From positions 1 to 64,000 of IMG/VR virus record IMGVR_UViG_3300021400_000949: a DNA stretch of 64,000 bases; one strand, 5' to 3'. Below, one piece after another: positions 17,359 through 37,874 of this stretch. Position 1 is the first letter of the stretch; each line of letters opens with the position of its first letter. Source of the stretch: a virus (lineage: Duplodnaviria; Caudoviricetes). Below the pieces are notes generated by a model, which saw only the letters and a program-made list of their open reading frames with translations, made no database searches and was not told the origin of the DNA. A program made the translations under genes and the position numbers.

Positions 17359-17368
17359 ATGGTATAAT
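17340..17368 (+). promoter_or_regulatory. sigmaA-type promoter
   Basis: TTGATT-17 bp-TATAAT. Confidence 0.65.
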
Positions 17369-17400
17369 TAAAAAAAAGAAAATGGAGAATTATAAATATT

Positions 17401-19462: not shown

Positions 19463-19484
19463 GAAGGGTAAAACCTTCTTTTTT
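19461..19484 (+). terminator. Intrinsic terminator
   Basis: AAGAAGG/CCTTCTT stem plus T-run. Confidence 0.55.
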
Positions 19485-20086: not shown

Positions 20087-20150
20087 TATACTGGTCTAAA
20101 AATATGTATTATCCATTTAGTCCGGTTACTTATTAATAGAGGTGATAAAA

Positions 20151-20894
20151 ATGGGATTAAAAAATGAATTAGGAAATACATATGGATATTTAACAGTAAT
20201 CGCTAGAGCAGAAAATACAAAAGAAGGTCGTGCTCAATGGTTATGTAAATGTAAATGTGGAAATGAAGTAGTAGTTTTAGGCAAGCATTTACGTTCTGGT
20301 AATACTAAATCTTGTGGGTGCTATTAGAAAGAACGAGCTATAGAATCAAATTTACAACGTGGCGGTAATTTAATTGGAAAAAGATTTGGTAGATTAGTTG
20401 TTTTATACGAAAATGGTTTTATAAATAAATCAGATGGAAGACGCGCAAGATTATGGCATTGTAAATGTGATTGTGGAAATGAGTGTGATGTTTAGCACCA
20501 ATATTTACAATGTGGTGATACTAACTCTTGTGGATGTATTAATTCAATAGGAAATATGACGATAAATCGTTTATTAAACAAAGCGGGGATTAAGTATGAA
20601 AGTGAATATAGTTTTAAAGATTTTATCTGTATAACTTATCCATACTAGTTTGATTTTGCTTTATTTGATAAAGAAGATAACTTATTAGGATTAATTGAAT
20701 ATCAAGGAGATATACATTTTACCTATAAAGAATATGGTTGGAACACAAAAGATAAATTTGAAGAACGAGTAAGAAGAGATAAGGAAAAATTTGATTTTTG
20801 TTAGAAAAATAATATAAAATTATATTATATTACTTATAAAGATGATATTGAAGAAAAAATAAAGGAGATATTAAATGAATTATACGGCAAATGA
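20151..20894 (+). CDS. Free-standing homing-endonuclease-like protein (247 aa, 4 TAG)
   Basis: Two WxCKCxCG...G.T.SCGC modules, then FDFAL...LIEYQGDIHF...RDKEK; overlaps the gyrB start. Confidence 0.75.
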
Positions 20895-22728
20895 TATAAT
20901 TAGTTTAAGTGCAGGCCGCGCTTTTAGAGAAAAAATAGGTATGTATCTTTCTGCCGATAAACAAGAGGCAATTAACTTAGGTTTAAGAGAATTAATTGTA
21001 AATGTACAAGATGAATATGAAGTTTATAAGCCAGCCAATCCATTTTTAAAAATAACTCTTTCGACAAAGACAAGAGAAATTATAGTTAGCGATAATATGA
21101 GGGGTATACCAGTAGGAATAAGAGATGATGGACAAAATTCTTTGACTGCCGCCTTCTTAATACCACACTCTGGAGGAAAACATACGGAGGGGGTATATTC
21201 TAGCGCTGTTGGTATTAATGGAGAAGGAAATAAAATTGTTTGTCACACTGCAGAGTTTTTAATTGTATCTGTTAAACGTGATGGTAAAATTTATACTCAA
21301 CGTTTTGAATCTAACGAAGAGGGAGCAACTCCAACGACAGAAGTTATGGAGGTTCCTTATGATGGTAAAGATACCGGTACTACAATTGTTTATAAACCAG
21401 ATCCTCGTGTTTATGGAGATATTTTTATTGATATTGAAAGTTTAAGGTCAATGTTAAAAGAAATGTCAATGTTTTCTACTGGGTTACATATTTATTTATA
21501 TATAGATGGGGAAAAAGAAGAATTTTTTTCAAAGAGTGGACTAATTGATGGTCTTTTAAAGGAAAATCGTCTTTCAAAGCCATTTTCTTATAGTTATGAA
21601 ACAAATGATTGTAAAGTTGAATTGGCTCTCCAATGGGTAAGTAAAAAAGGACAAATTCGTGGTTATGCAAATAATTTATATATGCCAGATGGAGGAGCCT
21701 TTATTAGTGGTTTCAAATCTTCATTAACAAGAACCTTTAATTCTCTTGCTAAAACAAAATATGATGGAGATACAATTCGAGATGTGCTTGATGGATTCGT
21801 AAGCGTTAAAGTTAAAATGGGGCAATTTACAAATCAGCAGAAAACAGCTTTAGCAAACCCCGAAGCACGAACTGCAACTTCTACTGCGATAAGTGATTGT
21901 TTAAAAGAATTTGCTTTAAAAAGAAAAGATGATTTTAATCAAGTAGTTGAATTACTTAACAAAGTGGCTCGCGCCGAAGCTGCGGCAGAAAAAGCACGTC
22001 AGCAAGTAATGAGCGCCACAAAAGAAGTTGAGAAAAATCAAAAGAAAAAAGTTTTTGCATCTGATAAACTTAAGGATGCAGAATTTCTTGGACAAAATTC
22101 AACCTTACTTTTAGTTGAGGGTAATAGTGCGGCTTCATCAATAGCAATGGCAAGAGATGAGAAGAGTTATGGAATTTTAGCACTTAGAGGAAAAATGATT
22201 AATACCTTTTCTAATGATGATGAAAAGATTTATCAAAATGAAGAAATTAAATTATTCCTCAGTGCTATGAATATAATACCGGGCAAATATAATGCTTCAA
22301 AATTGCGTTATGGAAAGATAGGTATATGTACCGATGCTGACGCAGATGGATATGCAATTGGTCTTTTGATAATGTGTGCTGTATATAAGTTTGCTCCCGA
22401 ATTTATTGAAGAAGGTCGTCTTTATTGGTTAAGGTCTCCACTTTATATTGTTAAGAATAAAAAAGAAGAATCTTATTACTTTACAGATGAAGAATTTGAA
22501 AAAGTTAGAAAAAATATAAAGGGAGAAGTTGAACGTGCAAAAGGACTCGGCGCGCTCTCGGCAGAACAAGCGCACAGGTCAATGTTTATGCCTGAATTCC
22601 AGCGTATGGACCAACTTTTGCCGGATAAAGACACAATTGATTTACTTTGGGACTTGATGGGTAAAGATAGTGAACCAAAACGTGACTTTATATTTAAACA
22701 CGTCGATTTCTCGGAGATAAGAGAATAA
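20875..22728 (+). CDS. gyrB: Type IIA topoisomerase (gyrase) subunit B
   Basis: GHKL ATPase (ELIVN..DE, DNMRGIP, HSGGK), FTNQQK, TOPRIM EGNSA/ALRGK/TDADADG, KGLG. Confidence 0.92.
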   Translation: MNYTANDIISLSAGRAFREKIGMYLSADKQEAINLGLRELIVNVQDEYEVYKPANPFLKITLSTKTREIIVSDNMRGIPVGIRDDGQNSLTAAFLIPHSGGKHTEGVYSSAVGINGEGNKIVCHTAEFLIVSVKRDGKIYTQRFESNEEGATPTTEVMEVPYDGKDTGTTIVYKPDPRVYGDIFIDIESLRSMLKEMSMFSTGLHIYLYIDGEKEEFFSKSGLIDGLLKENRLSKPFSYSYETNDCKVELALQWVSKKGQIRGYANNLYMPDGGAFISGFKSSLTRTFNSLAKTKYDGDTIRDVLDGFVSVKVKMGQFTNQQKTALANPEARTATSTAISDCLKEFALKRKDDFNQVVELLNKVARAEAAAEKARQQVMSATKEVEKNQKKKVFASDKLKDAEFLGQNSTLLLVEGNSAASSIAMARDEKSYGILALRGKMINTFSNDDEKIYQNEEIKLFLSAMNIIPGKYNASKLRYGKIGICTDADADGYAIGLLIMCAVYKFAPEFIEEGRLYWLRSPLYIVKNKKEESYYFTDEEFEKVRKNIKGEVERAKGLGALSAEQAHRSMFMPEFQRMDQLLPDKDTIDLLWDLMGKDSEPKRDFIFKHVDFSEIRE

Positions 22729-22732
22729 AAAG

Positions 22733-22761
22733 TTGAACTTATTATAAAATTCTGATATAAT
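22733..22761 (+). promoter_or_regulatory. sigmaA-type promoter
   Basis: TTGAAC-17 bp-TATAAT upstream of gyrA. Confidence 0.6.
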
Positions 22762-22800
22762 TATAATATAAAGATAGAAAGGAGAAAATAAAGGCAATAA

Positions 22801-25143
22801 ATGAGTAACTTAACACAAGTAATAAATGATAGCTTTATCCAATTTAGTGGTGCGGTTCTACAGAGCCGCGCCCTAGTCGATGTGCGTGATTGTATTAAGC
22901 CTTCTGCTCGTCAAATTTTTTACTGTATGTATACAGATAAATTTGTCCATTCTAAGCCTTTTCAAAAGACATTAAAAGCTATTGGTTCAGCTTTTCGTCT
23001 TTACATTCATGGAGATTCATCTGCTGAAGGAGTAATTATGAGGTCTGCGCAACCATTTGCAATGCGTTATCCACTTGTGGAAGTTGAAGGTTCCTATGGA
23101 ACTCTTTTGGCTTCTGGAAGTTGGGCGGCACCTCGTTATACAAGTTCAAGATTATCTCCTTTGGCTGAATATTTATTTGCAGATTTAAAAAAGGATACAA
23201 TTAGTGAGTGGCGTGATAACTATGATAATACTGAACAGTACCCCGCCGTATTACCATCAAAGGGTTTTTATAACCTGGTAAATGGAACCTATGGAATAGG
23301 TGTTGGCGCGAGCTCTTCAATTCCGCAGTACAACTTAAAAGAGTTAAATAAAGCATTAGAAGTTTTATTGTTAAATCCTGATGCTGAATTTGATGATATT
23401 TATGTAGCTCCTGATTTTGCGACCGGCGCAACCATTATAAATGGTGAGCAAGTTAAAGAGTCACATAAAAATGGTACGGGTTTTGCTTGTAAGATTAGAT
23501 CCTCTGTTGAGTGGGATGCAAAGGATAGATGCTTTATCGTAACTGAAATCCCCTATATGCTTTATACAGAAACTATTTGTAGAGAGCTTGAAGAGATAAT
23601 TAATAGTGAAAATAATTTTGGAATTGATAGATTTAATGATTTAACTGGTAAAACACCGTTAATTAAAATCTATCTACAGAAAAACGCTAATCCAGATAAA
23701 GTACTTAAGCAGTTATTTAGTAAAACTTCTCTTGAATCTTATTATGGAATTAACTTCACAATGTTGGACAATGGGCGCTTTCCAAGAGTGTTTACATGGA
23801 AAGAAATGCTACAAGCACACATTGACCATGAAAAGATCGTATATAGACGTGGATTTGAATATGACCTTAAAAAGATAGAGGATAGGCTGCACATTATAGA
23901 AGGTCTGCTAAAGGCTTATGATGTAATTGATGAAGTTGTTCAGACAATAAAACGCGCGGCTTCATCTGTTGAAGCAAATAAGGCATTAAGAGAGCTTTTA
24001 AGTATTGATGATGTACAGGCAAAAGCCATTCTTGCTTTAAAGTTATCTAGTCTTAGTAAAATAGATATAAATAAATTAGTAAATGAGCAGAATGAACTTA
24101 TAGGGCGCGCTTCGGAAATTCATAAGATTTTAGAAGATAAGGATTTGTTTAATGAACAGATAATACGTGGATGGCGCGAAGTTGCAGAAAAATTTGGTGA
24201 CGAACGCCGCACAAAAATTTTAAATCTTGGTGGTGAAGAAGAAGAGCCAACAGAGATAAAAAAACTTCAAATATCTTTAACAAATCTAGGAAATCTTTAT
24301 GCGGTTGAATCTTCAACTCTTTATACACAAAAGAGAGGTGGAGTTGGTACAAAGGCTAAGCTCGCGCAGAATGAGTATGTCGTAAATAGTATTAGTGTTA
24401 ATTCAAATGACAAGATCTTATTCTTTATGACAACCGGTAATTATTACCATTGTAAAGCATCTGATATAACACTTGAGACAAAAACTCCGGTCTGTACTTT
24501 AATAGGATTAAAAGACTGGGAAGCAACGCGCGCAATAATAGGATTAAATAAAGAAAATACTAAGGAATATGTTATCTTTATAACACGAAAAGGAATTATC
24601 AAAAAATCTCTTCTTTCAGAATATAACACAAATCGTGCAATCGGAATGCGAGCTTTAGCACTTGATGATGGTGATGAATTAGTTGATGTGTTATTTGCTA
24701 ATGAAGAAAAAATAGGTATAATGACCGAAGATGGTAACTTCTTAATAACAGAAACAAAAGATATTCGTCCAATAGGACGTGTTGCACGTGGAATAAAAGT
24801 AATAAAACTTAACGAAGGAGACGTTGTAGCGGCTGCGCGCCTTATATATCCGAATGCAAAAGAAATTATTTCTGTAAGTGGAAATGGATATATAAAATCA
24901 ACTGATATAAAAGAATTTTCAATACAAGGTAAAAATACAAAAGGAAGTCGCATTCAAAAACTTTATGATAGTGATTGGATGTCAGATTTCTTACCGGTAG
25001 ATGACTTAAAAGAAATACTGGTAAGCGCCACTAAATCTTGTATAAAATTCAAAAAGGATGAAATACCTATTGTGTCAAAAGGCGCATACGGTACACGCTC
25101 TATAAAAATTTCAGAAAAAGATAATATAATTGCTTTAAATTAA
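22801..25143 (+). CDS. gyrA: Type IIA topoisomerase (gyrase) subunit A
   Basis: DCIKPSARQ, HGDSS, AAPRYT (catalytic Tyr), GIGVG..SSIP, C-terminal pinwheel repeats with the GyrA-box-like QKRGGVG. Confidence 0.93.
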   Translation: MSNLTQVINDSFIQFSGAVLQSRALVDVRDCIKPSARQIFYCMYTDKFVHSKPFQKTLKAIGSAFRLYIHGDSSAEGVIMRSAQPFAMRYPLVEVEGSYGTLLASGSWAAPRYTSSRLSPLAEYLFADLKKDTISEWRDNYDNTEQYPAVLPSKGFYNLVNGTYGIGVGASSSIPQYNLKELNKALEVLLLNPDAEFDDIYVAPDFATGATIINGEQVKESHKNGTGFACKIRSSVEWDAKDRCFIVTEIPYMLYTETICRELEEIINSENNFGIDRFNDLTGKTPLIKIYLQKNANPDKVLKQLFSKTSLESYYGINFTMLDNGRFPRVFTWKEMLQAHIDHEKIVYRRGFEYDLKKIEDRLHIIEGLLKAYDVIDEVVQTIKRAASSVEANKALRELLSIDDVQAKAILALKLSSLSKIDINKLVNEQNELIGRASEIHKILEDKDLFNEQIIRGWREVAEKFGDERRTKILNLGGEEEEPTEIKKLQISLTNLGNLYAVESSTLYTQKRGGVGTKAKLAQNEYVVNSISVNSNDKILFFMTTGNYYHCKASDITLETKTPVCTLIGLKDWEATRAIIGLNKENTKEYVIFITRKGIIKKSLLSEYNTNRAIGMRALALDDGDELVDVLFANEEKIGIMTEDGNFLITETKDIRPIGRVARGIKVIKLNEGDVVAAARLIYPNAKEIISVSGNGYIKSTDIKEFSIQGKNTKGSRIQKLYDSDWMSDFLPVDDLKEILVSATKSCIKFKKDEIPIVSKGAYGTRSIKISEKDNIIALN

Positions 25144-25163
25144 AATTTTTAAGAAGTTAAATT

Positions 25164-25192
25164 TTGACTTTTACTTAAAAATTTTATATAAT
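25164..25192 (+). promoter_or_regulatory. sigmaA-type promoter
   Basis: TTGACT-17 bp-TATAAT. Confidence 0.8.
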
Positions 25193-25289
25193 ATATATAG
25201 AAGTTAAGGGAAAACACCTTAAAGTGCCATTAACCGAAAAAATAAGATAATGGCAAGAAAAAAAATTAAATTTATAGGAGAACAAAATT

Positions 25290-25538
25290 ATGAAGCTGAC
25301 AGAAAAGTCAAATGAAGTATTCGAGTATGTAAAGGGTAATGGCGGACACGTAAGTGTTGAAGAGATTTGCGCAGCAACAGGTAGAGCTGCTAGGTCAATA
25401 AGCGCAAACATCAATGACCTCGTTAAGAAGGGCCTTGCTGAAAGAGAGAAGATAGAGGTTGAGGGAGAAGAGAAGCCTATTACTTATGTTAATCTGACAG
25501 AAGAGGGAAAGACTTTTGTTCCTTCTGATGAGGACTAA
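25290..25538 (+). CDS. Small winged-helix DNA-binding protein
   Basis: 82 aa; VEEICAATGRAARSISANINDLVKKGL...YVNLTEEGK MarR-like wHTH pattern. Confidence 0.75.
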   Translation: MKLTEKSNEVFEYVKGNGGHVSVEEICAATGRAARSISANINDLVKKGLAEREKIEVEGEEKPITYVNLTEEGKTFVPSDED

Positions 25539-25619
25539 TTTTAAGTTTAACGAACTTAGTACGATAAGTACTAAGTTCGAATTTTAAAAGAACCAAGATA
25601 TAGAAAGAGAGGTATTTAA

Positions 25620-26543
25620 ATGAGACAGGCAGAAAATAGAGTTAGGATCGAAGGAATTTTATCAGAAACAGATATTAATTATGGTTCTTTTCAGAGAAAT
25701 GGACAGACTATTGAGTGTATAAGAGGTACAATTAAAGTCCTCGTAACACAGACAATAAATGGAGTTGTTATTGAGAACGAGATACCAGTTCATCTTTTTG
25801 CAAATAAGTTTACAAATCAGGGTAAACCAAACCCAGCTTATGATTCTATCGAAAAGATAAAGAATGATTTCGTTTCAATCGCCGCAGCAGGTGGAGAAAC
25901 TGGAGCAGACAGAGTAAGAATTACTTCTGGAAGAATTCAGATGAACGAATATTATAATGCAGATAAGAAGCTCGTATCTTTCCCAAGAATTTCAACTTCT
26001 TTTGTTACAAAGATAAGAAAAGATGAGTGTAAGCCAGAAGCTACTTTTTCAGTAGAAATGGTTATTGCAAATCAGGGATATGAGCTTGATGCTGATGGTG
26101 TAATAAAAGAACCTAAGAGATACCATATAAAGGGAATTATACCTGGATATGGTGATAGAGTTGATGTAGTTGACTTTGTATGTTCAAATGAAAATGTTGT
26201 AAATGCAGTTTCAAGTTATTGGAACGATAATGATACTGTTAAGGCTAATGGTAGACTTAACTTTAGTTCAACAACAGAAGTAGTTAAGGAAGAGGTTGAC
26301 TTTGGTGAGCCAATAGAAAGACAGCGTACAATTTCTGTAAGTGATCTTGTTATAACAGGTGGTTCACAGATGCCGCTCGAAGGAGAATTTGCATATAATC
26401 TGTCTGAAATTCAGTCAGCTCTTTCTGAAAGAAAGGCAAGACTTGAAGCACAGAAAGATAGTGATATTGCTAAGGCTAGACAGAGAATGGCACCGGCTCC
26501 AGCAAACGAAAGCTCAAAAGGTATGTTGGACCTCGGATTCTAA
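25620..26543 (+). CDS. Putative single-stranded DNA-binding protein (tandem OB-like folds)
   Basis: Beta-rich 307 aa, acidic/aromatic tail DLGF, next to a Sak4-like ATPase. Confidence 0.6.
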   Translation: MRQAENRVRIEGILSETDINYGSFQRNGQTIECIRGTIKVLVTQTINGVVIENEIPVHLFANKFTNQGKPNPAYDSIEKIKNDFVSIAAAGGETGADRVRITSGRIQMNEYYNADKKLVSFPRISTSFVTKIRKDECKPEATFSVEMVIANQGYELDADGVIKEPKRYHIKGIIPGYGDRVDVVDFVCSNENVVNAVSSYWNDNDTVKANGRLNFSSTTEVVKEEVDFGEPIERQRTISVSDLVITGGSQMPLEGEFAYNLSEIQSALSERKARLEAQKDSDIAKARQRMAPAPANESSKGMLDLGF

Positions 26544-26555
26544 GGAGGTTAACAT

Positions 26556-27518
26556 ATGCCTATAGATATCTTAAGTATTAAACCTAGTGTTATTTCTAGA
26601 GACTTAAGAGGCAAATATGTTCTTTTATATGGTAAAGCTAAAAGTGGAAAGACAACAGCAGCTTGTTCTTTCCCAAAAGCTTTACTGTGTGCATTTGAAC
26701 GTGGTTATAATGCAATAGGCGGTGTAATGGCGCAGGACATAGTTCGTTGGTCGGACTTTAAATTAGTTCTTCGCCAATTAGAAAAGCCAGAAGCACGTGA
26801 GATGTTCGAAACAATAATAATAGACACTGTCTCTATTGCATGGGACCTTTGCGAGCAGTTTATCTGCGCGCAGAATGGTGTTCAAAAAATTGCTGATATT
26901 CCTTGGGGACAAGGATATAGTGCTTGCAAAAAAGAATTTGAATCAAGTCTTAGAAAAATAACCCAGTTGGGATATGGTGTAGTATTAATTTGCCATAATG
27001 CTACTCGTATTGAGAAGACTGCAGATGGTAGTGAGTTAGAGGTTATTTCTCCAGAATTACCAAAGCGCGCCGCAGAAATCTGTAATGGAATTGTTGATAT
27101 TATCGGCTATATTGGAAACGAATATAAGGATGGCGAAAATATGCGCTATCTTTATACGAGAGAAACACCTACATTATTTGCGGGTTCTCGTTTTAAATAT
27201 TTGGCCCCAAAGATTCCTTTTGGATATAATGAACTTGTTCAGGCTATATCAGAAGCTATTGATAAAGCTGAGAAAATGGACGGCGTAAAAGTGGTTGACC
27301 ATATGAGTGAAAAGGTCGAGGAAAAGAGGTCTTTTGAATCAGTTCAGGCTGAAGCAAAAGCTTTATGGGAAGAATTAGTTAAAAAAGACCCCGAAAATGC
27401 TAAAAAGATTATGAAAAAAGTCGAAATGGTATTTGGTAGACCTATTAAACTTTCAGAGATTATGGAAGACCAGCAGGATTTATTTGAATTAGTAGTTGCT
27501 GACATGAAGACTCTTTAA
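26556..27518 (+). CDS. AAA_24 / Sak4-like recombination ATPase
   Basis: LYGKAKSGKTT Walker A, IIIDTVS Walker B, LICH, VDIIGY. Confidence 0.8.
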   Translation: MPIDILSIKPSVISRDLRGKYVLLYGKAKSGKTTAACSFPKALLCAFERGYNAIGGVMAQDIVRWSDFKLVLRQLEKPEAREMFETIIIDTVSIAWDLCEQFICAQNGVQKIADIPWGQGYSACKKEFESSLRKITQLGYGVVLICHNATRIEKTADGSELEVISPELPKRAAEICNGIVDIIGYIGNEYKDGENMRYLYTRETPTLFAGSRFKYLAPKIPFGYNELVQAISEAIDKAEKMDGVKVVDHMSEKVEEKRSFESVQAEAKALWEELVKKDPENAKKIMKKVEMVFGRPIKLSEIMEDQQDLFELVVADMKTL

Positions 27519-27533
27519 TTAATAATAAACTAT

Positions 27534-27563
27534 GAGCAGATATTGTATATATCTGCTCTTTTT
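27534..27563 (+). terminator. Intrinsic terminator
   Basis: GAGCAGATAT/ATATCTGCTC stem plus T5. Confidence 0.75.
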
Positions 27564-27567
27564 AAAT

Positions 27568-27596
27568 TTGCAAATTTTAAGAAATTGTGATATAAT
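27568..27596 (+). promoter_or_regulatory. sigmaA-type promoter
   Basis: TTGCAA-17 bp-TATAAT. Confidence 0.7.
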
Positions 27597-27627
27597 ATTC
27601 TTAGAAGAAAGAAAGAGAGGTAAAATT

Positions 27628-28215
27628 ATGAAGTGTCCTTATTGTGGCCTTGAAATACAAAAAACAGAAAAAAATGTTATTAAAAATGAAATTCAGGGTT
27701 TGGGTACTCGTAGTTATTATCATATTAAATGTCATGAATTGGCAAAAACTACACCTAAAAATGAATGGCCAGAGAAGAAAAAACAAGCAAAAGATAAAGC
27801 TGGAGAAATACAATTATGGGCAGAAATTATATATGATTATCTTTTAAGGTATCAAAGGATTTCTCCCGATTTTATGTTAATAAAAAGACAGCTAGATAGT
27901 TTTGTTAATGGGAAATATGGTTATAAATATAAAGGGGTTTATCTTTCTGTTAAGTATTTTTATGAGATAAGAAATAAATCTAATAATGAAGATAAATCAA
28001 ATGGCGGCATTGGTATTGTTCCTTATGTTTATGAAGAAGCTAAATATTATTGGGAAGATAAAGCAAGAAAAGATGATAAATTAGTTAATGATATAGAAAA
28101 ACAAATTAATGAGTTAAGAAATAAAGAAATTAAAAGAGTTCCTTATGCTCAAAAGAAAAAGGAAACAAAAAAGAATTTATCATTATCAGATGTTTTAGGA
28201 ATGGGGGATGAGTGA
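27628..28215 (+). CDS. Zn-finger protein upstream of the helicase (possible loader/initiator)
   Basis: MKCPYCG...YYHIKC; start after an RBS at 27628; translationally coupled to DnaB. Confidence 0.65.
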   Translation: MKCPYCGLEIQKTEKNVIKNEIQGLGTRSYYHIKCHELAKTTPKNEWPEKKKQAKDKAGEIQLWAEIIYDYLLRYQRISPDFMLIKRQLDSFVNGKYGYKYKGVYLSVKYFYEIRNKSNNEDKSNGGIGIVPYVYEEAKYYWEDKARKDDKLVNDIEKQINELRNKEIKRVPYAQKKKETKKNLSLSDVLGMGDE

Positions 28216-29771
28216 TGTTATCAGATAAAAGTACAATACGTCAAATATTGGGCGGCCTTATGAAGCATCCTCAGTATTTAGACCAATCAGATAAGTATAA
28301 TATAAGTGTTTCTGACTTTTCTAATAGATTTGAAAAGATTATATTTACAGCTATATATAATTTAAATAAAAATGGCTTAAAAAATATTCAGATTATTGAT
28401 ATTGAAAATTTTTTGGAAAGTGATAATTTAGCAAAAGATATTTTTGAGAAAAATAACGGAATTGAATTTTTACAAGATCTTGAAGATTTTGTTGAAGAAA
28501 GTAATTTTGATTATTATTATAATAAATTAAAGAAAATAAACTTATTGCGCGATTATCAAAAAATGGGGATTAATATAGATGAATTCTATTGTGAAGACCT
28601 AACCGCGCCAAAAGCATTTGAAATTAATCAAGAGTTTGAAATATTAAGTGTCTCTGATATAACAGATAGAATTAAAAAGAAATTTTTATTAATTGAAAAT
28701 AAATATTTAAAAAATGATGTAACTGAAGTAGAGAGCGCCGCCGAAGGATTGGATGAGTTAATACAAAGTTTTTATGAACGAAGTGATGTAGGTTTACCGA
28801 TCCAAGGTATTTATACAAACGAAATATTAAATGGCGCAAGAAAAGGTACTTTATGTATTAGGTCCGCGGGAAGTGGTACAGGAAAAACAAGGCAAGCTGT
28901 AGGTGATGCATGTTATTTAGCTTTTCCTTTAAGGTATAATAGTAAAACTGAATCTTGGGAAAAGATTGGAAATAGTGAGAAGGTTTTATTTATCGCAACA
29001 GAGCAAGATTTTAATGAAATTAGAAAAATGATATTAGCATATTTAACTGATATAAATGAAAGTAGATTTAGATATGGTGATTTTTCTAAAAGAGAAGAAA
29101 AAATTATTAATCAAGCTATTCAAGTAATGAGAGAATATGAAGATAATTTTTTTATTGTGAGAATGCCGAACCCGACAATAGATTTAGTTAAAAATATTAT
29201 ACGAGAGAATTGTCTAACAAAAAATATAAGTTATGTATTTTATGACTATATATTTATAGGGCCATCATTGTTAAATGAGTTTAAAGGTTTTAATTTAAGA
29301 AACGATGAAGTTTTATTGATGTTTGCGACAGCTTTAAAGGATTTAAGTGTTGAGTTAAATATATTTATAATGACTTCAACTCAGGTCAATGCAAATGCAG
29401 ATGATAATAGAAATATAAGAAATGAAGCGAGTCTTGCAGGAGGGCGCGCGACCATAAATAAAGCTGATTATGGTTTAATAATGGCAAGACCAACAAAAGA
29501 AGAATTAGAAGCGATTGAAAAATTGTGTGAAAAATACGGCGCGCCGAATATTGTAACAGATGTATTTAAAGTAAGAAGTGGACAATGGACACAAGTAAGA
29601 ATTTGGTCTATTGTAGATTTAGGAACTTTAAAGAAAAAGGATATATTTATAACAAATTCTAGATTAGAAGCATTAGATGACTTTACAGCTGATTTTAATT
29701 ATATAATTCAAGATTTGTTACCGGAAGAAGAAGATAGAGTTAATAATATTATAGAAAGGATAACAAAATGA
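28212..29771 (+). CDS. dnaB: DnaB-like replicative helicase
   Basis: AGSGTGKT, FIATEQ, VFYDYI, LKDLSVELN...TSTQVN, KADYG. Confidence 0.88.
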   Translation: MMLSDKSTIRQILGGLMKHPQYLDQSDKYNISVSDFSNRFEKIIFTAIYNLNKNGLKNIQIIDIENFLESDNLAKDIFEKNNGIEFLQDLEDFVEESNFDYYYNKLKKINLLRDYQKMGINIDEFYCEDLTAPKAFEINQEFEILSVSDITDRIKKKFLLIENKYLKNDVTEVESAAEGLDELIQSFYERSDVGLPIQGIYTNEILNGARKGTLCIRSAGSGTGKTRQAVGDACYLAFPLRYNSKTESWEKIGNSEKVLFIATEQDFNEIRKMILAYLTDINESRFRYGDFSKREEKIINQAIQVMREYEDNFFIVRMPNPTIDLVKNIIRENCLTKNISYVFYDYIFIGPSLLNEFKGFNLRNDEVLLMFATALKDLSVELNIFIMTSTQVNANADDNRNIRNEASLAGGRATINKADYGLIMARPTKEELEAIEKLCEKYGAPNIVTDVFKVRSGQWTQVRIWSIVDLGTLKKKDIFITNSRLEALDDFTADFNYIIQDLLPEEEDRVNNIIERITK

Positions 29772-29980
29772 CAAGAGAAGAAATTTTAGGAATTAAAGAA
29801 GTATTTAAAGAAGGAATGGGAGTTTATCTTTATGAGATGCAAGGTGAGCCAAATATGTTTGACTTAAAAGGTGAAGTTTTATATGTTGATGATATAGGAC
29901 AAGTTCATGTTAGATGGGAAAATGGTAGTAGCCTCGCGTTAAATGTAAATTGTGATAGTTATAAATTACTAGAAAGGTAA
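29768..29980 (+). CDS. DUF4314-like protein
   Basis: GEVLYVDDIGQVHVRWENGSSLAL pattern. Confidence 0.7.
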   Translation: MTREEILGIKEVFKEGMGVYLYEMQGEPNMFDLKGEVLYVDDIGQVHVRWENGSSLALNVNCDSYKLLER

Positions 29981-29983
29981 TCC

Positions 29984-31036
29984 ATGGATTATAAAGAGAT
30001 TATTGATAATTTAAAAATTGAATCGGTAATCGAATTAATGAAAAAACTCGGCGCGGATCGATATATAGAAAAAGAAACTCATATAATTTTTCCAACAATT
30101 TGTCATAATACTGATGCGGCAACTGCATCAATGAAACTTTATTTTTATAAAGATACAAAGATGTTTGTTTGTTATACAGAAGATAGTAATATGTCTATAT
30201 TTAAATTTTTAAAGACTTATTATGAAACAAGACAAATTGAGTACGACTGGTTTGAAGATATATATAATGTTGTGTTAGATTGCGCAAATTTAACAAAAAC
30301 AGAAGGCTTTGAACCTGCGCGATATGATTCTTTAAAAGAAAGGTATAAAAAGAAAAGACAAACTCCTGGTCTTCCAAACTATCCAAAGAATATTTTAGAT
30401 ATATTTACCAAGTATTATCCTGTTGAATGGTTAAATGATGGTATATCTAAAAAAGCTATGGATAAATATAATATTCGTTTTTCTATAAGTCAAAATAAAA
30501 TCATAATTCCGCATTATGATGTTGAAAATAATTTAGTAGGAATTCGAGGCCGCGCCCTTAATCAATGGGAAGTTGAAAATGTCGGTAAATATATGCCGGT
30601 TCAAGTAGAAGGTAAATGGTATAAGCATCCATTAAGTTTAAATCTTTTTGGATTAAATCAAAATAAAGAAAATATTAAAAAATATGGAGTTTGCTACGTT
30701 GGAGAGGCAGAAAAGTTTTGTCTACAATGTGAAAGCTTTAATATGGCTAATGTTTCTGTTGGGGTATGCGGCAGCCAGTTTAATAAATACCAATTAAATC
30801 TATTATTAAAATATTGTAACCCAAGAGAAATAATTATATGTTTTGATAAAGAAGAAAAAGAAGGAGAACACAAATATTTCGATAAATTATATGGTATTTG
30901 TGAAAAGTATAAAAATTACTGCAACTTTTCTTTTATCTATGATACAAAAAATTTATTAAGGTTAAAAGATTCACCTACCGATAGAGGTGAAGAAATCTTT
31001 AAAGAATTGTTAAGAGAGAGAGTAATAGTTAGATGA
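29984..31036 (+). CDS. dnaG: DNA primase (DnaG-like, TOPRIM)
   Basis: IIIPH...GIRGR, LFGL, VGEAEK, ICFDKE; lies between DnaB and RecJ. Confidence 0.8.
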   Translation: MDYKEIIDNLKIESVIELMKKLGADRYIEKETHIIFPTICHNTDAATASMKLYFYKDTKMFVCYTEDSNMSIFKFLKTYYETRQIEYDWFEDIYNVVLDCANLTKTEGFEPARYDSLKERYKKKRQTPGLPNYPKNILDIFTKYYPVEWLNDGISKKAMDKYNIRFSISQNKIIIPHYDVENNLVGIRGRALNQWEVENVGKYMPVQVEGKWYKHPLSLNLFGLNQNKENIKKYGVCYVGEAEKFCLQCESFNMANVSVGVCGSQFNKYQLNLLLKYCNPREIIICFDKEEKEGEHKYFDKLYGICEKYKNYCNFSFIYDTKNLLRLKDSPTDRGEEIFKELLRERVIVR

Positions 31037-32745
31037 AGGTTAGATTAGTAAATGAAAATATAACAAAAAACTATGCTGAGGAACTTTTAAAGGCGCGCGG
31101 CATAACAGATCCAGGAAAGTTTGTATATCCAACTCCTGATTGTCTTGAGACTTGGAAGAATTTAGATAATGTTACTCAGGGGGTTGAACTTATATTAAAC
31201 ACTTTAGATAGTTCCTTACCATATGCTTTAGTAGTTGACTGTGACGTAGATGGTTTTACTTCTTCAGCTATTTTATATCAGTACATTAAAAAATTAAATC
31301 CTAATAAGCAAATAGATTATTATATTCATACCGGAAAGCAGCATGGTCTTGAGGATAAATGGGAAGAAATCGCTCAACATGTATATGCCGCCGTATTAAT
31401 CCCAGACGCAGGAAGCAACGATAAGCAATATATAGAAAAATTATCTTGCCCCGTTTTAGTGTTAGACCATCATATTGTTGAAAGTGATGATTTCGCGCCA
31501 AATATGATTTTAATTAATAATCAAAGTTCTGCTCATTATCTTAATAAGGACATGTCTGGTGCGGGAGTAGTATGGCAATTCTGTCGAGCTATTGATAATA
31601 AGTTGGGTTATAATTGTGCAGATGAATTTATTGATTTGGCAGCGCTCGGTATAGATGCAGATATGATGAGTATGTTGAATTATGAAAATCAATATATAAT
31701 TCAAAAAGGATTTAATAATATAAATAATTTTTTCTTTAAAATATTATTAGAAAAACAATCCTACTCAATGGGAAATCAAGTTAGCCCTATTTCTGTAGCT
31801 TTTTATATAGTACCAATGATTAATGCTATGATTCGAGTAGGGTCTGAAGAAGAAAAAAATAGATTATTTCTTGCTTTTATTGACGGCCAACGACTCGTTC
31901 CTAGTCATAAACGCGGCGCCAAAGGAGAAATGGAACGCGTTGCGATTGAATCGGCGCGCGAATGTACAAATGCAAAATCGAGGCAAGATAAAACAAAAGA
32001 AAGAATTGTCGATAGTTTAGAACAAAAGATATTTAAACACGACTTACTTGAAAATCGTATTTTGTTTGTAAGACTAGACGATGATGATGACTTCCCGGCT
32101 GAATTAAATGGTTTAGTTGCAATGCAACTTAGTGCTAAATATAGTAAACCTACAATAGTCGCGCGACTCAACCCCGAAGGATATATACGAGGAAGCGCGC
32201 GAGGTGTAAATAAGAGTGAATTAGACTCTTTTAAGAACTATTTAAATCATACTGGTTTATTCGAATATACAGTTGGGCATGACAATGCTTTTGGTATTTC
32301 TATTTTAAATAAAAACCTTGATAATCTTCATAAAATCGCAAATGAAGAATTAAAAGATGTTGATTTTGGCGAAAGTGCTTATGATGTAAATTTTGTTCGT
32401 TCAGCTAAAGATGCAGACATTGAGAAGATAATTTATTCGCTCGACGAAATTAAGCATACTTGGGGACAAGGAAACGAAGAACCATTATTGTACATTGAGA
32501 ATATCTTTATTACAAAAGACGATATTCAGGTAATTGGGAAGAATAAAGATACCTTAAAGTTTGAGAAAAACGGAGTTACTTATATAAAATTTCGCGCAAA
32601 AAATGAAATTGAGAGCTTAAATGAGTTTAATGATATAAAAATAAATTTAGTTGGAAAAGGAAATGTTAATGAATGGATGGGGCAATATAAGCCTCAAATA
32701 ATTATTGAAGACATGGAGATAATGGATAGTACACTTGAATTTTAA
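31033..32745 (+). CDS. recJ: RecJ-like ssDNA exonuclease (DHH)
   Basis: VDCDVDG, PDAG, LDHH, SGAGVVW, GSARG, GHDNAFG. Confidence 0.9.
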   Translation: MKVRLVNENITKNYAEELLKARGITDPGKFVYPTPDCLETWKNLDNVTQGVELILNTLDSSLPYALVVDCDVDGFTSSAILYQYIKKLNPNKQIDYYIHTGKQHGLEDKWEEIAQHVYAAVLIPDAGSNDKQYIEKLSCPVLVLDHHIVESDDFAPNMILINNQSSAHYLNKDMSGAGVVWQFCRAIDNKLGYNCADEFIDLAALGIDADMMSMLNYENQYIIQKGFNNINNFFFKILLEKQSYSMGNQVSPISVAFYIVPMINAMIRVGSEEEKNRLFLAFIDGQRLVPSHKRGAKGEMERVAIESARECTNAKSRQDKTKERIVDSLEQKIFKHDLLENRILFVRLDDDDDFPAELNGLVAMQLSAKYSKPTIVARLNPEGYIRGSARGVNKSELDSFKNYLNHTGLFEYTVGHDNAFGISILNKNLDNLHKIANEELKDVDFGESAYDVNFVRSAKDADIEKIIYSLDEIKHTWGQGNEEPLLYIENIFITKDDIQVIGKNKDTLKFEKNGVTYIKFRAKNEIESLNEFNDIKINLVGKGNVNEWMGQYKPQIIIEDMEIMDSTLEF

Positions 32746-32746
32746 T

Positions 32747-32775
32747 TTGATTTTTTATTAAAATTTTGGTATACT
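32747..32775 (+). promoter_or_regulatory. sigmaA-type promoter
   Basis: TTGATT-17 bp-TATACT. Confidence 0.65.
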
Positions 32776-32805
32776 ATATATAGAAAGTAAGAAAGAGGTG
32801 AAGGA

Positions 32806-35800
32806 ATGGAGAAGTTAAGATATAGCGGAAGTTTACATAATCACACGATGTTCTCAAACCTTCGTCTACGTGATTGCATTATCAAAGAAGATGAATTAAT
32901 AAATTATGCAATAGAATTAGGACACAAAGTAGTGGCAATAACTGACCATGAAAGTGTTTCTAATTCTATTAAAGTACAAAAGATTTATAAAAAAATTAAG
33001 GAAAAGAACCCAGATTTTAAGATTATATTAGGAAATGAGATTTATCTCTGTAGAAATGGTTTAAATGCAGACAATTATAATAGTGAAACAGATAGATATT
33101 ATCATTTTATACTTTTAGCGAAGGATGAAATTGGACACAAGCAGATAAGAGAAATCTCAACAAGGGCATGGCGTCGTAGTTATATGGCGCGCGGTATGCG
33201 TAGAGTTCCAACTTATTATCAAGATTTATTTGAAGTAATTGGCGCGAACCCAGGTCATGTAATTGGATCAACGGCATGTTTAGGAGGTGCATTACCAACT
33301 CAGATTTTACGTGGAACATCAGAAGATAAGCTGGAAATATGGATTAAACAATTAAATAAGTTGTTTGGTCAAGGAAATTTTTATCTTGAGATGCAGCCAT
33401 CAAATAATAAAGACCAGATAACTGTAAATAAAAAGTTGTTAGAGTTTAGTAAGAAGTTTAATGTGCCTTATATTATAACAACAGATAGCCATTATTTAAA
33501 AAAAGAAGATAGAGCAATTCATAAAGCATATTTAAATGCGCAGAATGGTGATAGAGAGGTTGATGAATTTTATGCAACAACGTATATGATGTCAACCGAA
33601 GAATTAGAAAGTTATTTTAAGTATTTTGATGATGAAGTTTTACAGAAGGCTTATCAAAATATTTTAGATATTGCAAATAAATGTGAAGATTATGATTTGA
33701 TGAAACCTTTAAGAATTCCGGATTTGGTATGGAATACACCAAAGCATCAGGTCGCGCCGAGTAAATATTATGATAAGATTCCATATCTTAAAACCTTTAT
33801 GGAATCAGATTATATAGGTGACCATAAATTATGTAATGCAATTATTGAAGGAATTGAAACGCATCCCGATCTTCAGAATGATAGAGCTTATAATGAGATA
33901 AATTCAAATCTTGAAATGACTTGGATAAGTTCAAAAGTAAATAATGCACATTGGTCAGCATATTATTTAAATCTTCAAAAGATAATTGATTTATGCTGGG
34001 AAGCGGGATCAATAGTAGGGCCAGGAAGAGGCTCAGGTGTTGGCTTTATATTGTTATATGTTTTAGGTATAACACAGATAAATCCATTAAGAGAGACAAC
34101 TCGTTGTTTTTCTTGGAGATTTTTAAATCCAGAACGTGTTAGTGTATTGGATGTTGACTTTGATATTGAAGGAAACCGCAGAAATGATGTTTTAAATAAA
34201 TTTAGAGAGTTTTATGGTGATGATAGAGTTGCGAACGTTGCAACTTTTAGAACAGAAAAGTCAAAAAGTGCAATTCTTACGGCGGCACGTGGTTTAGGAA
34301 TTGATGTTGACATCGCGCAGTATATTGCAAGTTTGATTCCAGCAGATAGGGGTCAATTAAGAAGTCTTGACCAGTGTATGTATGGCGATAAAGAAAATGG
34401 TTATAATCCGATTAAACAATTCGTATTTGAAATGACGGAAAATTATCCGGAATTATGGAATGTAGCTCATAGAATTGAAGGATTGGTTTGTGGATATGGA
34501 ATGCATGCCGGCGGTGTAATTTTCGTTGATGAACCTTTTACAGAATCAACTGCATTAATGCGTGCGCCAGATGGTACGATTTGTACACAATTTGACTTGC
34601 ATGACTGTGAAGATGTTTCATTAATTAAGTATGATGCGTTATCGGTTGAAGCGATGGATAAAATTCATAATTGCATTGATTTGATATGTGATTATGGATA
34701 TGCAAAACGTGAAGCAACTTTAAAAGAAACTTATGAAAAACTGGTTGGAATTTATAGACTCGAAAGAGATAATAAAGAAATGTGGAAAAAAGTTTGGAAT
34801 CATGAGATACAAAGTTTGTTTCAAATGGAAAAACAATCAGGTATTCAGGGAATAGCAACTTTAAAGCCAACTTCAGTTGATGATTTGGCAATCTTAAACT
34901 CAACTATTCGATTAATGGCGCAAGAAAAAGGCGGAGAAATGCCAACCGAAAAATTGGCACGATTTAAATCGAATCCGAAGGAATGGGATAGAGAGTTAGA
35001 GAGATATGGTTTAGGTCAAAAAGAAAAAGATATATTAAGTCCAGTTTTGGGAATGTCATATGGATTATGTATTGCGCAAGAGCAATTTATGGAGTTAGTT
35101 CAATTACCAGAACTTGGCGGTTTTTCATTGAGCTGGGCAGATAAACTTCGTAAATCAATAGCAAAGAAAAATCCAAAGGAATATGACTCGTTAACAAAAG
35201 AATTTTATGAAGTAACAAAAGAAAAAGGAATTAATCAACGGTTCGCGCATTATGTGTGGGATGTGTTGATAGCAATGAGTAAGGGTTATGGATTTAACCA
35301 GTCTCATACGTTAGCTTATTCATTAATTGCATTACAAGAAATGAATTTAGCATTTAAATATCCGATAATCTTTTGGAATTGTGCGTGTTTGATAAATGAT
35401 AGCGGCGGGATCACGAGTCTTGAGGAAGAAGAGGAAGAAGAATTAGAAAAAGAAGAAATAATATATGATAATACTTTAGATTTTTCTTCAGAAGATGAGG
35501 ATTCTGACGATGAAGATGAAGTAATAGAGAAAAAAGTTGATAAAAAGAAAAAATCAAAAGCAGTAAACTATGGAAAGATAGCGAGTGCGATTGGTAAAAT
35601 GAAATCAGAAGGTATTGAGGTAGCGCCGCCGAATATTAATACTTCAACTTTAACTTTTTCTCCAGATGTAGAACATAATGTAATTCGTTATGGGCTAAGT
35701 GGAATAACAAAAATTGGTGAAGATTTAATTCAATCTATTATGAAAAATAGACCATATAATTCATTAGATGATTTTATCTCAAAAAATAAAGTGTCAAAAC

Positions 35801-36762
35801 CGCAAGTTATTAATTTAATAAAATGTGGTGCATTTGATGAATTTGGTGATAGAATGGAAATAATGGAAGATTATGTTGAATCAATTAGTGATAAGAAGAA
35901 AGAATTAAATCTTAGAAATGTGAAAATGTTAATTGATTTTGGTCTGTTACCAGAAGAGTTAGATTTTCAAAAAAGAGTGTTTAATTTTGATAAGTATTTA
36001 AAGAAATTTAAATATGATAAGTATTATGAATTAAATGAACAAACATTACCATTTTATGAAAACAATTTTGATATGGATTTGTTGGAAGGAGATGGCGCGC
36101 GACTTAGTATAAAACAAACTGAATGGAAAAAGATTTATGATAAGCAAATGGATGTTATTAGGAAGTATATAAAAGCTAATCATAATGAATTATTAAAAAA
36201 GGTTAATAATAAATTATATAGTGATATTTGGGATAAGTATTGTTTAGGTAATTTAAGTAAGTGGGAAATGGATTCAGTTTCATATTATTCTCATGAACAT
36301 GAATTAGCGCATGTTAATATGAAATATTATGGGTTTTCTGATTTTAAAGAAATGGATGAAACACCGGATATTGAAAGAGTTATTACAATAAAAGGTAAAG
36401 AAATTCCGATTTTTAAGATTAAAAGAATTATAGGAACTGTTTTAGATAGGGATAAATTAAAGAAAACCGTAACTTTATTAACAACAAGTGGCGTGGTGAC
36501 TGTTAAAATTTATGGTGATGTATTCACTCATTATGATAAGCAGTTAAGTGAAAAAGGTGCAGATGGGAAAAAACATGTAATTGAAAAATCTTGGTTAAGT
36601 AGAGGAAATAAAATTATAGTGTGTGGAATTAGGAGCGAAGATGGTTTTTTAGCAAAGAAATATTCAAGAACTCCGTGGCATTTAGTTGAATTAATAACGC
36701 AGATTAATGAAGATGGAACAATTCAAATTCGTAGTGGAAGAATGGATGAGGTAGAGGAATGA
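32806..36762 (+). CDS. dnaE: DNA polymerase III alpha subunit (DnaE type)
   Basis: PHP domain (HNHT, ITDH, TTDSHY), GPGRGSG, DVDFD, HAGGV, KYD, GYGFNQSH; 1318 aa with no TAG. Confidence 0.95.
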   Translation: MEKLRYSGSLHNHTMFSNLRLRDCIIKEDELINYAIELGHKVVAITDHESVSNSIKVQKIYKKIKEKNPDFKIILGNEIYLCRNGLNADNYNSETDRYYHFILLAKDEIGHKQIREISTRAWRRSYMARGMRRVPTYYQDLFEVIGANPGHVIGSTACLGGALPTQILRGTSEDKLEIWIKQLNKLFGQGNFYLEMQPSNNKDQITVNKKLLEFSKKFNVPYIITTDSHYLKKEDRAIHKAYLNAQNGDREVDEFYATTYMMSTEELESYFKYFDDEVLQKAYQNILDIANKCEDYDLMKPLRIPDLVWNTPKHQVAPSKYYDKIPYLKTFMESDYIGDHKLCNAIIEGIETHPDLQNDRAYNEINSNLEMTWISSKVNNAHWSAYYLNLQKIIDLCWEAGSIVGPGRGSGVGFILLYVLGITQINPLRETTRCFSWRFLNPERVSVLDVDFDIEGNRRNDVLNKFREFYGDDRVANVATFRTEKSKSAILTAARGLGIDVDIAQYIASLIPADRGQLRSLDQCMYGDKENGYNPIKQFVFEMTENYPELWNVAHRIEGLVCGYGMHAGGVIFVDEPFTESTALMRAPDGTICTQFDLHDCEDVSLIKYDALSVEAMDKIHNCIDLICDYGYAKREATLKETYEKLVGIYRLERDNKEMWKKVWNHEIQSLFQMEKQSGIQGIATLKPTSVDDLAILNSTIRLMAQEKGGEMPTEKLARFKSNPKEWDRELERYGLGQKEKDILSPVLGMSYGLCIAQEQFMELVQLPELGGFSLSWADKLRKSIAKKNPKEYDSLTKEFYEVTKEKGINQRFAHYVWDVLIAMSKGYGFNQSHTLAYSLIALQEMNLAFKYPIIFWNCACLINDSGGITSLEEEEEEELEKEEIIYDNTLDFSSEDEDSDDEDEVIEKKVDKKKKSKAVNYGKIASAIGKMKSEGIEVAPPNINTSTLTFSPDVEHNVIRYGLSGITKIGEDLIQSIMKNRPYNSLDDFISKNKVSKPQVINLIKCGAFDEFGDRMEIMEDYVESISDKKKELNLRNVKMLIDFGLLPEELDFQKRVFNFDKYLKKFKYDKYYELNEQTLPFYENNFDMDLLEGDGARLSIKQTEWKKIYDKQMDVIRKYIKANHNELLKKVNNKLYSDIWDKYCLGNLSKWEMDSVSYYSHEHELAHVNMKYYGFSDFKEMDETPDIERVITIKGKEIPIFKIKRIIGTVLDRDKLKKTVTLLTTSGVVTVKIYGDVFTHYDKQLSEKGADGKKHVIEKSWLSRGNKIIVCGIRSEDGFLAKKYSRTPWHLVELITQINEDGTIQIRSGRMDEVEE

Positions 36763-37874
36763 GTATTGGCTTATTTGATATGGACTTCGCTACCTACATG
36801 CCTCTCATGTTTAATCTTGAAATAATGAAACTTTCTACTTATTTTAAAAGACAAAGAGAAGTGGTTTTGTTAATGCCAGAGTTGGATACGGACCGCTTCT
36901 CCAAGGTCTTTATTAGGAAGGATTATGATGATGGAAACTTTGATAATAGGTTTTTTCTTCCACACGTAACATACGGCGGCCGCGCCTTTAATAAACTAAA
37001 ATATATACCATTGCCACAAGAACAAGAGGTATGCCGCCCCGATGAGAGTATATATAGTAGATTTGCTACTAAATATAGTTATCAATAGAATAATGACATT
37101 CTATTTAAAATGATGAGTCGCGCCGAACACGTGCGACTTACACAAGACGGCATAAATATATGGGAACCGGGTTTTAAATACTTTGGATATAATACTGGAA
37201 AAGTACTAATAGTGCATGATTATGATTTAGGCTCTGTTAAAGATGGTGATTTGGTTGTAAAGGATTTAATGGCGGTTTTACGAAAACGCAATCCGATAAT
37301 GACAGATTCTTATCTAGGATTAAAATTTCCAATTAATGTTTATAATGATAAGGATTTTAAAAAATGGGAAGAAATAAAGGGCGCTCGTAGTTTTTATACA
37401 ATTTAGTATAATGGAGATTTTAATACAGACCAAATACTTGAATATGCTTACGGCGTGGCTCGGCAAAATATCAGTTATAATCTAAACTATAACGTAACCT
37501 ATGGATCATCCGATGAGAATGATTTTATAGAAAACCATCTATTAAAAATTTTTAGGCAAGTTTTATTTTTATAGAGCATACATCAAAAAATTACACTTAT
37601 ATATGATGATGATTTTTTCATAGATAAGCGATGGGAAGAAATTATAAAGTTATTTAATCTTTATCTTAACTTTTCTAGCAACACAAAAAATAAATCTTTA
37701 TGTACTTTATTTAGTTATTTAACTTTTCCTTTTTGGCAGAAGTTATATGACTATGATGTGGAAAGAATTAAAGAATTATTTTAGTTAGTTAGAGTAAAAA
37801 ATTATGAAACCTTTAAGTTATTTTATAAGTTCCCTAATGATTTTATATAGGAGATGAAATTAGATGACAGGTAA
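36759..37874 (+). CDS. Protein resembling the N-terminus of phage radical-SAM proteins, lacking CxxxCxxC (371 aa, 5 TAG)
   Basis: IGLFDMD...NLEIMKLSTYFK...YGG; TAG 37086, 37404, 37572, 37782, 37848; ends TAA 37874. Confidence 0.65.

Follow-up and report, generated by a model that had tools for sequence, protein, structure and literature searches.

Reassignment of TAG from a stop codon to glutamine (genetic code 15) has been described for several clades of gut phages, namely the crAss-like, Garnet, Amethyst, Topaz, and Agate phages (Borges et al., bioRxiv 10.1101/2021.08.26.457843; Yutin PMC7886860; Mgcod 10.1101/2022.06.29.495998). The reassignment is mostly limited to late genes, and phages separated by short phylogenetic distances can differ in their code (Yutin et al. 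2021, PMC7886860); genomes that are split into blocks with different codes have been described as well (Mgcod preprint, 10.1101/2022.06.29.495998). Recoded and standard-code members are also mixed among distantly related gut siphophages (Babkin et al. 2023, PMC10607447). Here, we analyzed the first 64 kb (in the following, the window) of IMG/VR record IMGVR_UViG_3300021400_000949, a single linear virus contig of 79,879 bp (33% GC; ~67% complete by CheckV), in which 11 consecutive genes from gyrB to dnaE are free of in-frame TAG, whereas the genes for tail proteins, tape measure, and endolysin are rich in it. An initial reading made from the sequence only had interpreted this partition as a translational timer that fits the published recoding model for gut phages. 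The partition indeed matches the published pattern (Borges et al.; Yutin et al.), of which it is a new example and not a new principle; the timer model, too, has been published before.

The resemblance to the code 15 gut phages is extensive. In-frame TAG occurs in structural, lysis, and some DNA-processing genes, and the replication machinery adheres to the standard code; the phage has a suppressor tRNA of its own, and a gating of late translation can be proposed. As in those clades, the close standard-code relatives have a low GC content and few TAG stops, and the code switches over short distances. Unlike the described clades, the phage represents a ~115-kb siphovirus-like lineage with a DnaE/gyrase/RecJ replisome, its host is probably a member of Bacillota and not of Bacteroidota, no release factor or helper of the aminoacyl-tRNA synthetase type was seen in a search aimed at release factors only, and the one suppressor tRNA found here is a non-canonical insertion in a nucleotide-metabolism operon. 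It thus adds a well-documented case in a lineage that is neither crAss-like nor associated with Bacteroidota.

The Phassvirus group, whose members are phAss-1, BK046881, and BK025033 (Babkin et al. 2023, PMC10607447), likewise comprises large gut siphophages with mixed codes, in which TAG is found mostly in virion genes and a few DNA-processing genes; these phages carry tRNA arrays with a tRNA-Sup(CTA) and no dedicated aminoacyl-tRNA synthetase, and the set of recoded genes varies between close relatives. The phage studied here is only distant kin, with a protein similar to the major capsid protein (MCP) that is 37% identical to that of Phass-1 (OQ749652), and does not belong to the same genus; its nearest complete relatives are genomes from IMG/VR. 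In the analogy drawn by Borges et al., the tRNA genes of phage T4 shift the decoding capacity toward late genes. In T4, this concerns the supply of sense codons, whereas here a stop codon is reassigned, so that the alternative is between truncated and full-length proteins and not between slow and fast synthesis.

The contig probably covers about two thirds of a tailed, siphovirus-like phage of ~115 kb. Open reading frames (ORFs) were called with TAA and TGA as the sole stops and TAG as a sense codon, and long, densely packed ORFs emerge in the window only if TAG is read through. Replication and nucleotide-metabolism genes form a unit on the plus strand (13475-44210), which is flanked on the minus strand by a unit of tail-fiber-like and lysis genes (1089-13347) and by a unit of tail, head, and packaging genes (44245-79048 of the contig). 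Because promoter-like sites are no more common than in shuffled sequence, these transcription units are tentative. In the plus-strand unit, searches against Pfam and PHROGs identified GyrB, GyrA, an AAA_24 ATPase, DnaB, primase, RecJ, DnaE, NrdD, NrdG, dUTPase, and RuvC, together with RNase H, ligase, a helicase, and nucleases of the HNH and GIY-YIG types; in the minus-strand units, they identified endolysin, tape measure, tail proteins, portal, and large terminase. DnaE is best matched by SPbeta-like Bacillus phages (37% identity), and the nearest homologs of the protein at the capsid position are in uncultured gut phages, Phass-1 (37%), Enterococcus phages of ~140 kb, and Clostridioides phages of ~132 kb. 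This similarity to SPbeta, Enterococcus, and Clostridioides phages, which is the sole basis for the assignment, makes a host among Bacillota likely.

The 11 plus-strand ORFs of the gyrB–dnaE block (20875-36762; 617, 780, 82, 307, 320, 227, 519, 70, 350, 570, and 1318 amino acids [aa] in this order) amount to 5,160 codons, within ~1% of the ~5,128 codons given in the sequence-only reading, and encode glutamine by 101 CAA and 59 CAG but by no TAG. Contig-wide, TAG accounts for 260 of the 907 Gln-type codons (29%), which puts the binomial probability of finding none among 160 at ~3e-24; a TAG-free run of the same length did not arise in any of 20,000 shuffles of gene order. The block contains 240 off-frame TAGs, which documents that the trinucleotide as such is not depleted and that the purge is limited to the reading frame. 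Summed over the 12 annotated genes of replication and nucleotide metabolism, none of 177 glutamine codons is TAG. The absence of TAG from the genes for NrdD, NrdG, dUTPase, ligase, RNase H, and a 216-aa protein (40908-41558) had also been noted in the initial reading and was borne out in all cases. The label "ThyX-like" that it attached to the 216-aa protein found no support, since the protein has no sequence match in Pfam or the Protein Data Bank (PDB) and matches only phrog_6721, a family of unknown function.

TAG is abundant in the minus-strand tail module, where it makes up 141 of 282 Gln-type codons (44693-65352). The tape-measure gene, which continues past the window to position 65352 of the contig, carries 62 TAGs (48 of them within the window), the gene of a 2216-aa tail protein 45, and that of a 1086-aa protein 18; together with the endolysin gene, in which seven of nine glutamine codons are TAG, these counts agree with the initial description of tail, tape-measure, and endolysin genes. 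Not all virion genes follow this trend, and the contrast between an amber-free replication core and amber-rich virion and lysis genes therefore holds only in part. The proteins at the capsid (349 aa), scaffold (181 aa), and major-tail (249 aa) positions, which are probably the major capsid, scaffold, and major tail proteins, are encoded with neither TAG nor CAA and use CAG exclusively, which suggests that the efficiency of suppression does not suffice for the most abundant proteins. A small search of the literature on recoded phages yielded no statement on the avoidance of TAG by abundant virion proteins. Within the replication module, the gyrB–dnaE block is clean, but the genes for the helicase, two homing endonucleases (GIY-YIG and HNH), the 371-aa protein, and RuvC carry TAG. 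The coordinates of all features are summarized in Table 1.

Table 1. TAG-free and TAG-bearing genes and the candidate suppressor tRNA (positions refer to the window unless the contig or L081 is indicated; aa, amino acids)
Feature	Position	Strand	Observations
gyrB	20875-22728	+	0 TAG; Pfam DNA_gyraseB, Toprim
gyrA	22801-25143	+	0 TAG; Pfam DNA_topoisoIV
82-aa winged helix-turn-helix-like ORF, 307-aa protein, AAA_24 ATPase, 227-aa protein	25290-28215	+	all 0 TAG
DnaB helicase, 70-aa ORF, primase, RecJ, DnaE polymerase	28212-36762	+	all 0 TAG
RNase H, glycosyltransferase, ATP-dependent ligase, HNH nuclease	13475-16816	+	0 TAG
NrdD, 69-aa ORF, NrdG, 216-aa protein, small ORF, dUTPase	38268-42900	+	second TAG-free block
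368-aa gene	9245-10351	-	0 TAG amid TAG-bearing minus-strand genes; raised codon-adaptation index (0.56)
Candidate tRNA(CUA)	41637-41707	+	between the genes of the 216-aa protein and dUTPase, in the second TAG-free block
HNH endonuclease	20142-20894	+	4 TAG; 3' end overlaps the start of gyrB; left boundary of the gyrB–dnaE block
371-aa gene	36759-37874	+	5 TAG; ATG overlaps the dnaE stop (ATGA)
GIY-YIG nuclease and short DNA helicase	17401-19462	+	11 and 8 TAG; main exception within the replication module
RuvC-like resolvase	43476-44210	+	TAG 7/9 Gln codons (0.78); last gene of the plus-strand unit
Endolysin	12187-13347	-	TAG 7/9 Gln codons (0.78)
Tail module, including tail protein with RIFT-related domain, 2216-aa protein, and tape measure	44693-64000	-	TAG 42-60% of Gln codons
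Major-tail position	contig 66246-66995 (L081 2246-2995)		0 TAG
Capsid position	contig 70230-71279 (L081 6230-7279)		0 TAG
Scaffold position	contig 71305-71850 (L081 7305-7850)		0 TAG
Portal	contig 73229-74716 (L081 9229-10716)		last sense codon TAG
441-aa protein	contig 77723-79048 (L081 13723-15048)	-	9 TAG; first gene of the late minus-strand unit

The edges of the block coincide with gene junctions, but this is also the case in published maps, and the boundaries are not unusually sharp, as initially thought. The co-transcribed pairs at these junctions (HNH/gyrB and dnaE/371-aa gene) nevertheless make the strongest case for an effect at the level of translation, as both members of a pair would be transcribed alike. 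At the junction of dnaE and the 371-aa gene, the contrast persists in two complete recoded relatives (G001 and G002), with no TAG on one side and 7-10 on the other. A two-gene cassette (17325-19480) consists of the GIY-YIG nuclease and the short helicase and has a terminator-like hairpin and a promoter-like site upstream and another terminator-like hairpin downstream; a hairpin of this kind is also found 3' of the RuvC-like gene. All 11 TAGs of the GIY-YIG nuclease gene are located within its first 156 codons.

The partition is conserved among relatives. Most of the 195 related IMG/VR loci follow the standard code, but 35 were clearly recoded; in recoded relatives, translation of TAG as a sense codon raises the coding density from 0.4-0.8 to ~0.9. 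Among the glutamine codons of the recoded loci, the fraction of TAG is zero for gyrB, gyrA, DnaB, and primase, 0.001 for DnaE, 0.009 for dUTPase, and 0.02 for NrdD and NrdG; it is zero also at the capsid, scaffold, and major-tail positions. TAG fractions are much higher in the 371-aa gene (0.46), RuvC (0.42), the GIY-YIG nuclease (0.31), and the terminase, portal, and accessory head and tail genes (0.2-0.44). The partition recurs gene by gene in the complete genomes G001 and G002, and the RuvC orthologs of recoded relatives contain 4 and 10 TAGs.

Several lines of evidence support the decoding of TAG as glutamine (genetic code 15) in this phage. If TAG is counted as glutamine, the glutamine content is ~3% in TAG-free and TAG-rich genes alike. 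Pairwise alignments (n=385) with close orthologs from standard-code phages place glutamine opposite the TAGs of the window at 264 of 548 positions (48%), compared to 62% for CAA and 72% for CAG. In multiple alignments, glutamine shows the strongest enrichment of all residues at TAG columns (4.4-fold). In the comparison with the standard-code sister genome (G006), 50 of 138 TAGs align with CAA or CAG, and each of the remaining codons occurs at most 10 times at such positions. The sister genome has a GC content of 30% and uses predominantly TAA as stop codon (113 genes), followed by TGA (18) and TAG (12); it lacks a tRNA(CUA).

The only candidate for a suppressor tRNA in the contig does not lie within the gyrB–dnaE block, where the sequence-only reading had placed it, but 4.9 kb outside, in the second TAG-free block. 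Neither ARAGORN at default settings nor a scan of the whole window with Rfam at gathering thresholds detected any tRNA in the window; the tRNA(CUA) was found by ARAGORN with the option -ps90 (41636-41710) and by a local search with the Rfam tRNA model. Another low-threshold hit of ARAGORN, a "tRNA-Val(aac)" at 25518-25594, was dismissed; its cloverleaf is poor, and it overlaps with the final part of the 82-aa ORF. The tRNA(CUA) has a GC content of 63% in a genome of 33% GC, the anticodon loop CU-CUA-AA, and an encoded CCA; its acceptor stem has an unpaired 1:72 position, the pairs G2-C71 and G3-C70, and the discriminator G73. An unpaired 1:72 position, G73, and G2-C71/G3-C70 are identity elements of tRNA-Gln in Escherichia coli. 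The canonical tRNA(CUA) of G001 shares the anticodon loop, G73, and the U1·U72 mismatch. The tRNA(CUA) of the contig is absent from the orthologous site in relatives, and no copy of it was detected in 80 related loci, in GenBank phages (blastn with 41560-41760), or, as an exact 21-mer, elsewhere in IMG/VR.

A further suppressor probably exists beside the candidate in the contig. The recoded genomes G001 (124 kb), G002 (120 kb), and G004 (121 kb), which are complete or nearly so, possess arrays of 15-29 tRNAs, each with a canonical tRNA(CUA), directly downstream of the orthologs of genes 1089-1744. Since the left end of the contig lies only ~1 kb beyond these genes, the position of the array would fall just off the contig, and a further suppressor tRNA in the missing third of the genome is likely. 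G001 (L217) also has, beside its tRNA(CUA), a tRNA with the anticodon UUA (ochre type) at 12177-12251. The tRNA(CUA) of G002 (L229; 119240-119327) is 88 nt long and has the long variable arm of a class II tRNA; its amino acid identity may differ from the Gln-type suppressors of G001 and the phage studied here. A search for release factors beyond the replication module, as suggested in the initial reading, detected no gene with an RF-1 domain in the contig or in four relatives, so that suppression would have to compete with release factor 1 (RF1) of the host.

These results are best explained by a translational gate, to which we assign, as a whole (recoding, purifying selection, competition with RF1, and incomplete suppression), a probability of about 70%. 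The phage would decode TAG as glutamine with its own suppressor tRNA or tRNAs. The genes of the replisome, gyrase, and nucleotide metabolism, which are considered early by their function, would have to be translated at a time when TAG still acts as a stop in the cell, and purifying selection would keep them free of TAG and has presumably also removed TAG as their stop codon. Most genes for virion formation, lysis, and DNA cleavage would tolerate TAG as an ordinary glutamine codon, and their full-length products would appear only once tRNA(CUA) outcompetes the RF1 of the host. The tRNA(CUA) of the contig sits in a TAG-free plus-strand operon, and the tRNA array missing from the assembly probably provides another. 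Incomplete suppression would presumably be the reason why TAG is also avoided in the genes of the most abundant virion proteins. Such a gate follows from the anatomy of the genome; the delay that it would impose may be an adaptation or a by-product.

A number of observations weigh against this explanation. The late genes are encoded on the other strand, and their transcription is probably already regulated, so that a translational gate would be redundant for them. The exclusion of TAG is leaky in the recoded relatives, with TAG fractions of 0.14 in AAA_24 and 0.05 in RecJ and rare TAGs in NrdD. The helicase gene has eight TAGs here but none in its orthologs in G001 and G002, which means that the partition is not strictly tied to function. 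The tRNA(CUA) is barely above the threshold of Rfam (30.4 bits vs. a gathering threshold of 29), and its T-loop is non-canonical (GGCGGCA instead of the usual TTCRANY). TAG is uniformly distributed along the TAG-bearing genes (Kolmogorov-Smirnov p=0.37), with no bias toward their 5' ends, and does not occur in a special context, as the +4 base is the same as for CAA and CAG (chi-square p=0.20). The TAGs act as ordinary glutamine codons, and nothing marks them as tuned for regulation.

The latter also bears on a stricter version of the gate, in which recoding is maintained because it delays lysis and other late functions, with the density of TAG tuned in the genes of endolysin, RuvC, and homing nucleases. 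This scenario is possible but doubtful. It draws on the high TAG fractions of endolysin and RuvC, which are the highest of all genes, and on the location of TAG-bearing genes inside early operons (overlaps of the 371-aa gene with dnaE and of HNH with gyrB), where they can be separated only by translation; a bias toward lysis genes has also been reported for two other lineages (Borges et al., bioRxiv 10.1101/2021.08.26.457843). The counts per gene, however, are small (7/9), and the uniform placement and ordinary context of TAG do not indicate any tuning. TAG fractions of 0.4-0.6 in the tail genes would be close to the outcome of drift among CAA, CAG, and TAG at 33% GC, and the carriage of TAG varies among relatives not only in the helicase (8 vs. 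0) but also in the glycosyltransferase, which has none here and seven in G001. A clean test between an adaptive timer and a tolerated by-product would be possible with the relatives, the co-transcribed pairs (dnaE/371-aa gene), and the TAG-free genes of abundant virion proteins, given a comparison set of complete standard-code and recoded genomes at 65-85% protein identity.

Trivial causes do not account for the partition. Glutamine content, which the sequence-only reading had named as a possible objection, is ruled out by the equal values (~3%) in both gene classes, and strand bias is rejected, since genes with and without TAG alternate along one strand. The other objection, expression level, applies only to some of the genes. 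If TAG were simply a poor codon that is shunned in highly expressed genes irrespective of timing, one could explain why the genes at the capsid, scaffold, and major-tail positions, which have the highest codon-adaptation index, are TAG-free and use only CAG, why these families lack TAG in all recoded relatives, and why the gene of the 307-aa protein in the block (25620-26543; phrog_2367), which has the top index within the block, encodes all of its 12 glutamines by CAG. Yet, eight of the nine block genes of at least 120 aa match the index of the tail genes (~0.45-0.50), most of them favor CAA, and all are free of TAG. The mean index of the block (0.49) does not differ from that of the tail genes (0.46; Mann-Whitney p=0.29), and there is no correlation between index and TAG fraction (Spearman -0.18, p=0.18). 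Nor would one expect larger amounts of DnaE, RecJ, and gyrase than of portal or tail proteins, which also argues against expression level as the general cause. By the proxy of codon adaptation, it thus appears to explain the split only in part, namely for the three TAG-free virion genes and the 307-aa block gene, and as a full explanation it is unlikely.

It is very unlikely that the replication module recombined into the phage from a standard-code relative so recently that it had no time to accumulate TAG. Although the clade is mosaic and mostly standard-code and the best relatives differ from gene to gene (gyrB is 78% identical to that of G002 and 48% to that of G006), the replication genes are no closer to the standard-code sister (48-84% identity) than the head genes (63-85%), and dnaE and the ligase gene, which stop at TAG in the sister genome, end with TGA and TAA, respectively, in the present phage. 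This indicates that the block is not a recent import, and no other gene in the block stops at TAG either. In addition, diverged recoded relatives (55-70% identity) are TAG-free in the same genes, which would require repeated recent imports. On the MCP tree, the recoded head modules are scattered (parsimony, 6 changes; at least 4 are forced by strongly supported branches), the present phage is sister to two standard-code phages (support of 98 in the Shimodaira-Hasegawa-like approximate likelihood ratio test), and a single recoded clade is rejected by the approximately unbiased (AU) test (p=0.0046). However, this is a quick single-gene tree, and recombination may contribute to the scatter.

The translational gate can be extended to the entire clade of siphophages (~110-125 kb, most members standard-code, hosts probably Bacillota), which may represent a natural series of repeated recent gains or losses of the TAG-to-Gln reassignment. 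In this speculative extension, which is probably not correct in all its parts, amber codons would be avoided for two reasons, timing in the replisome and dosage in capsid and tail-tube proteins, and the inserted tRNA(CUA) would serve as a "starter" suppressor that opens the gate before the array is expressed.

The function of the 371-aa protein encoded after dnaE was addressed separately. It has no sequence match in Pfam, PHROGs, or the PDB, and its AlphaFold model (predicted local distance difference test score of 86) has no match in Foldseek. An assignment as sliding clamp, by which a core gene of the replisome would have joined the amber-bearing ones, was rejected. The model has an N-terminal Rossmann-like domain and, in VIA-align, appears to resemble radical S-adenosylmethionine enzymes of the RimO/MiaB/MgmA type (Z ~10), but the family alignment contains no conserved cysteines; the invariant residues include D7, D9, H124, R126, H153, and D154.

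Annotation of this phage requires some caution, because gene callers that apply code 11 shred its late genes and tRNA finders overlook its suppressor at default settings. The C-terminal part of the 441-aa protein encoded by the first gene of the late minus-strand unit is similar to a PHROG with the annotation sigma factor (E=2e-15) and shows a weak match to endonuclease VII; if the protein were a late transcription factor, its own synthesis would depend on suppression. In the portal gene, the TAG at the last sense position directly precedes the TAA stop, and this arrangement may be the relic of a TAG stop with TAA as backup. In G001, gyrB (25497-28432) and dnaE (39655-44517) are each split by an ORF for a homing endonuclease.

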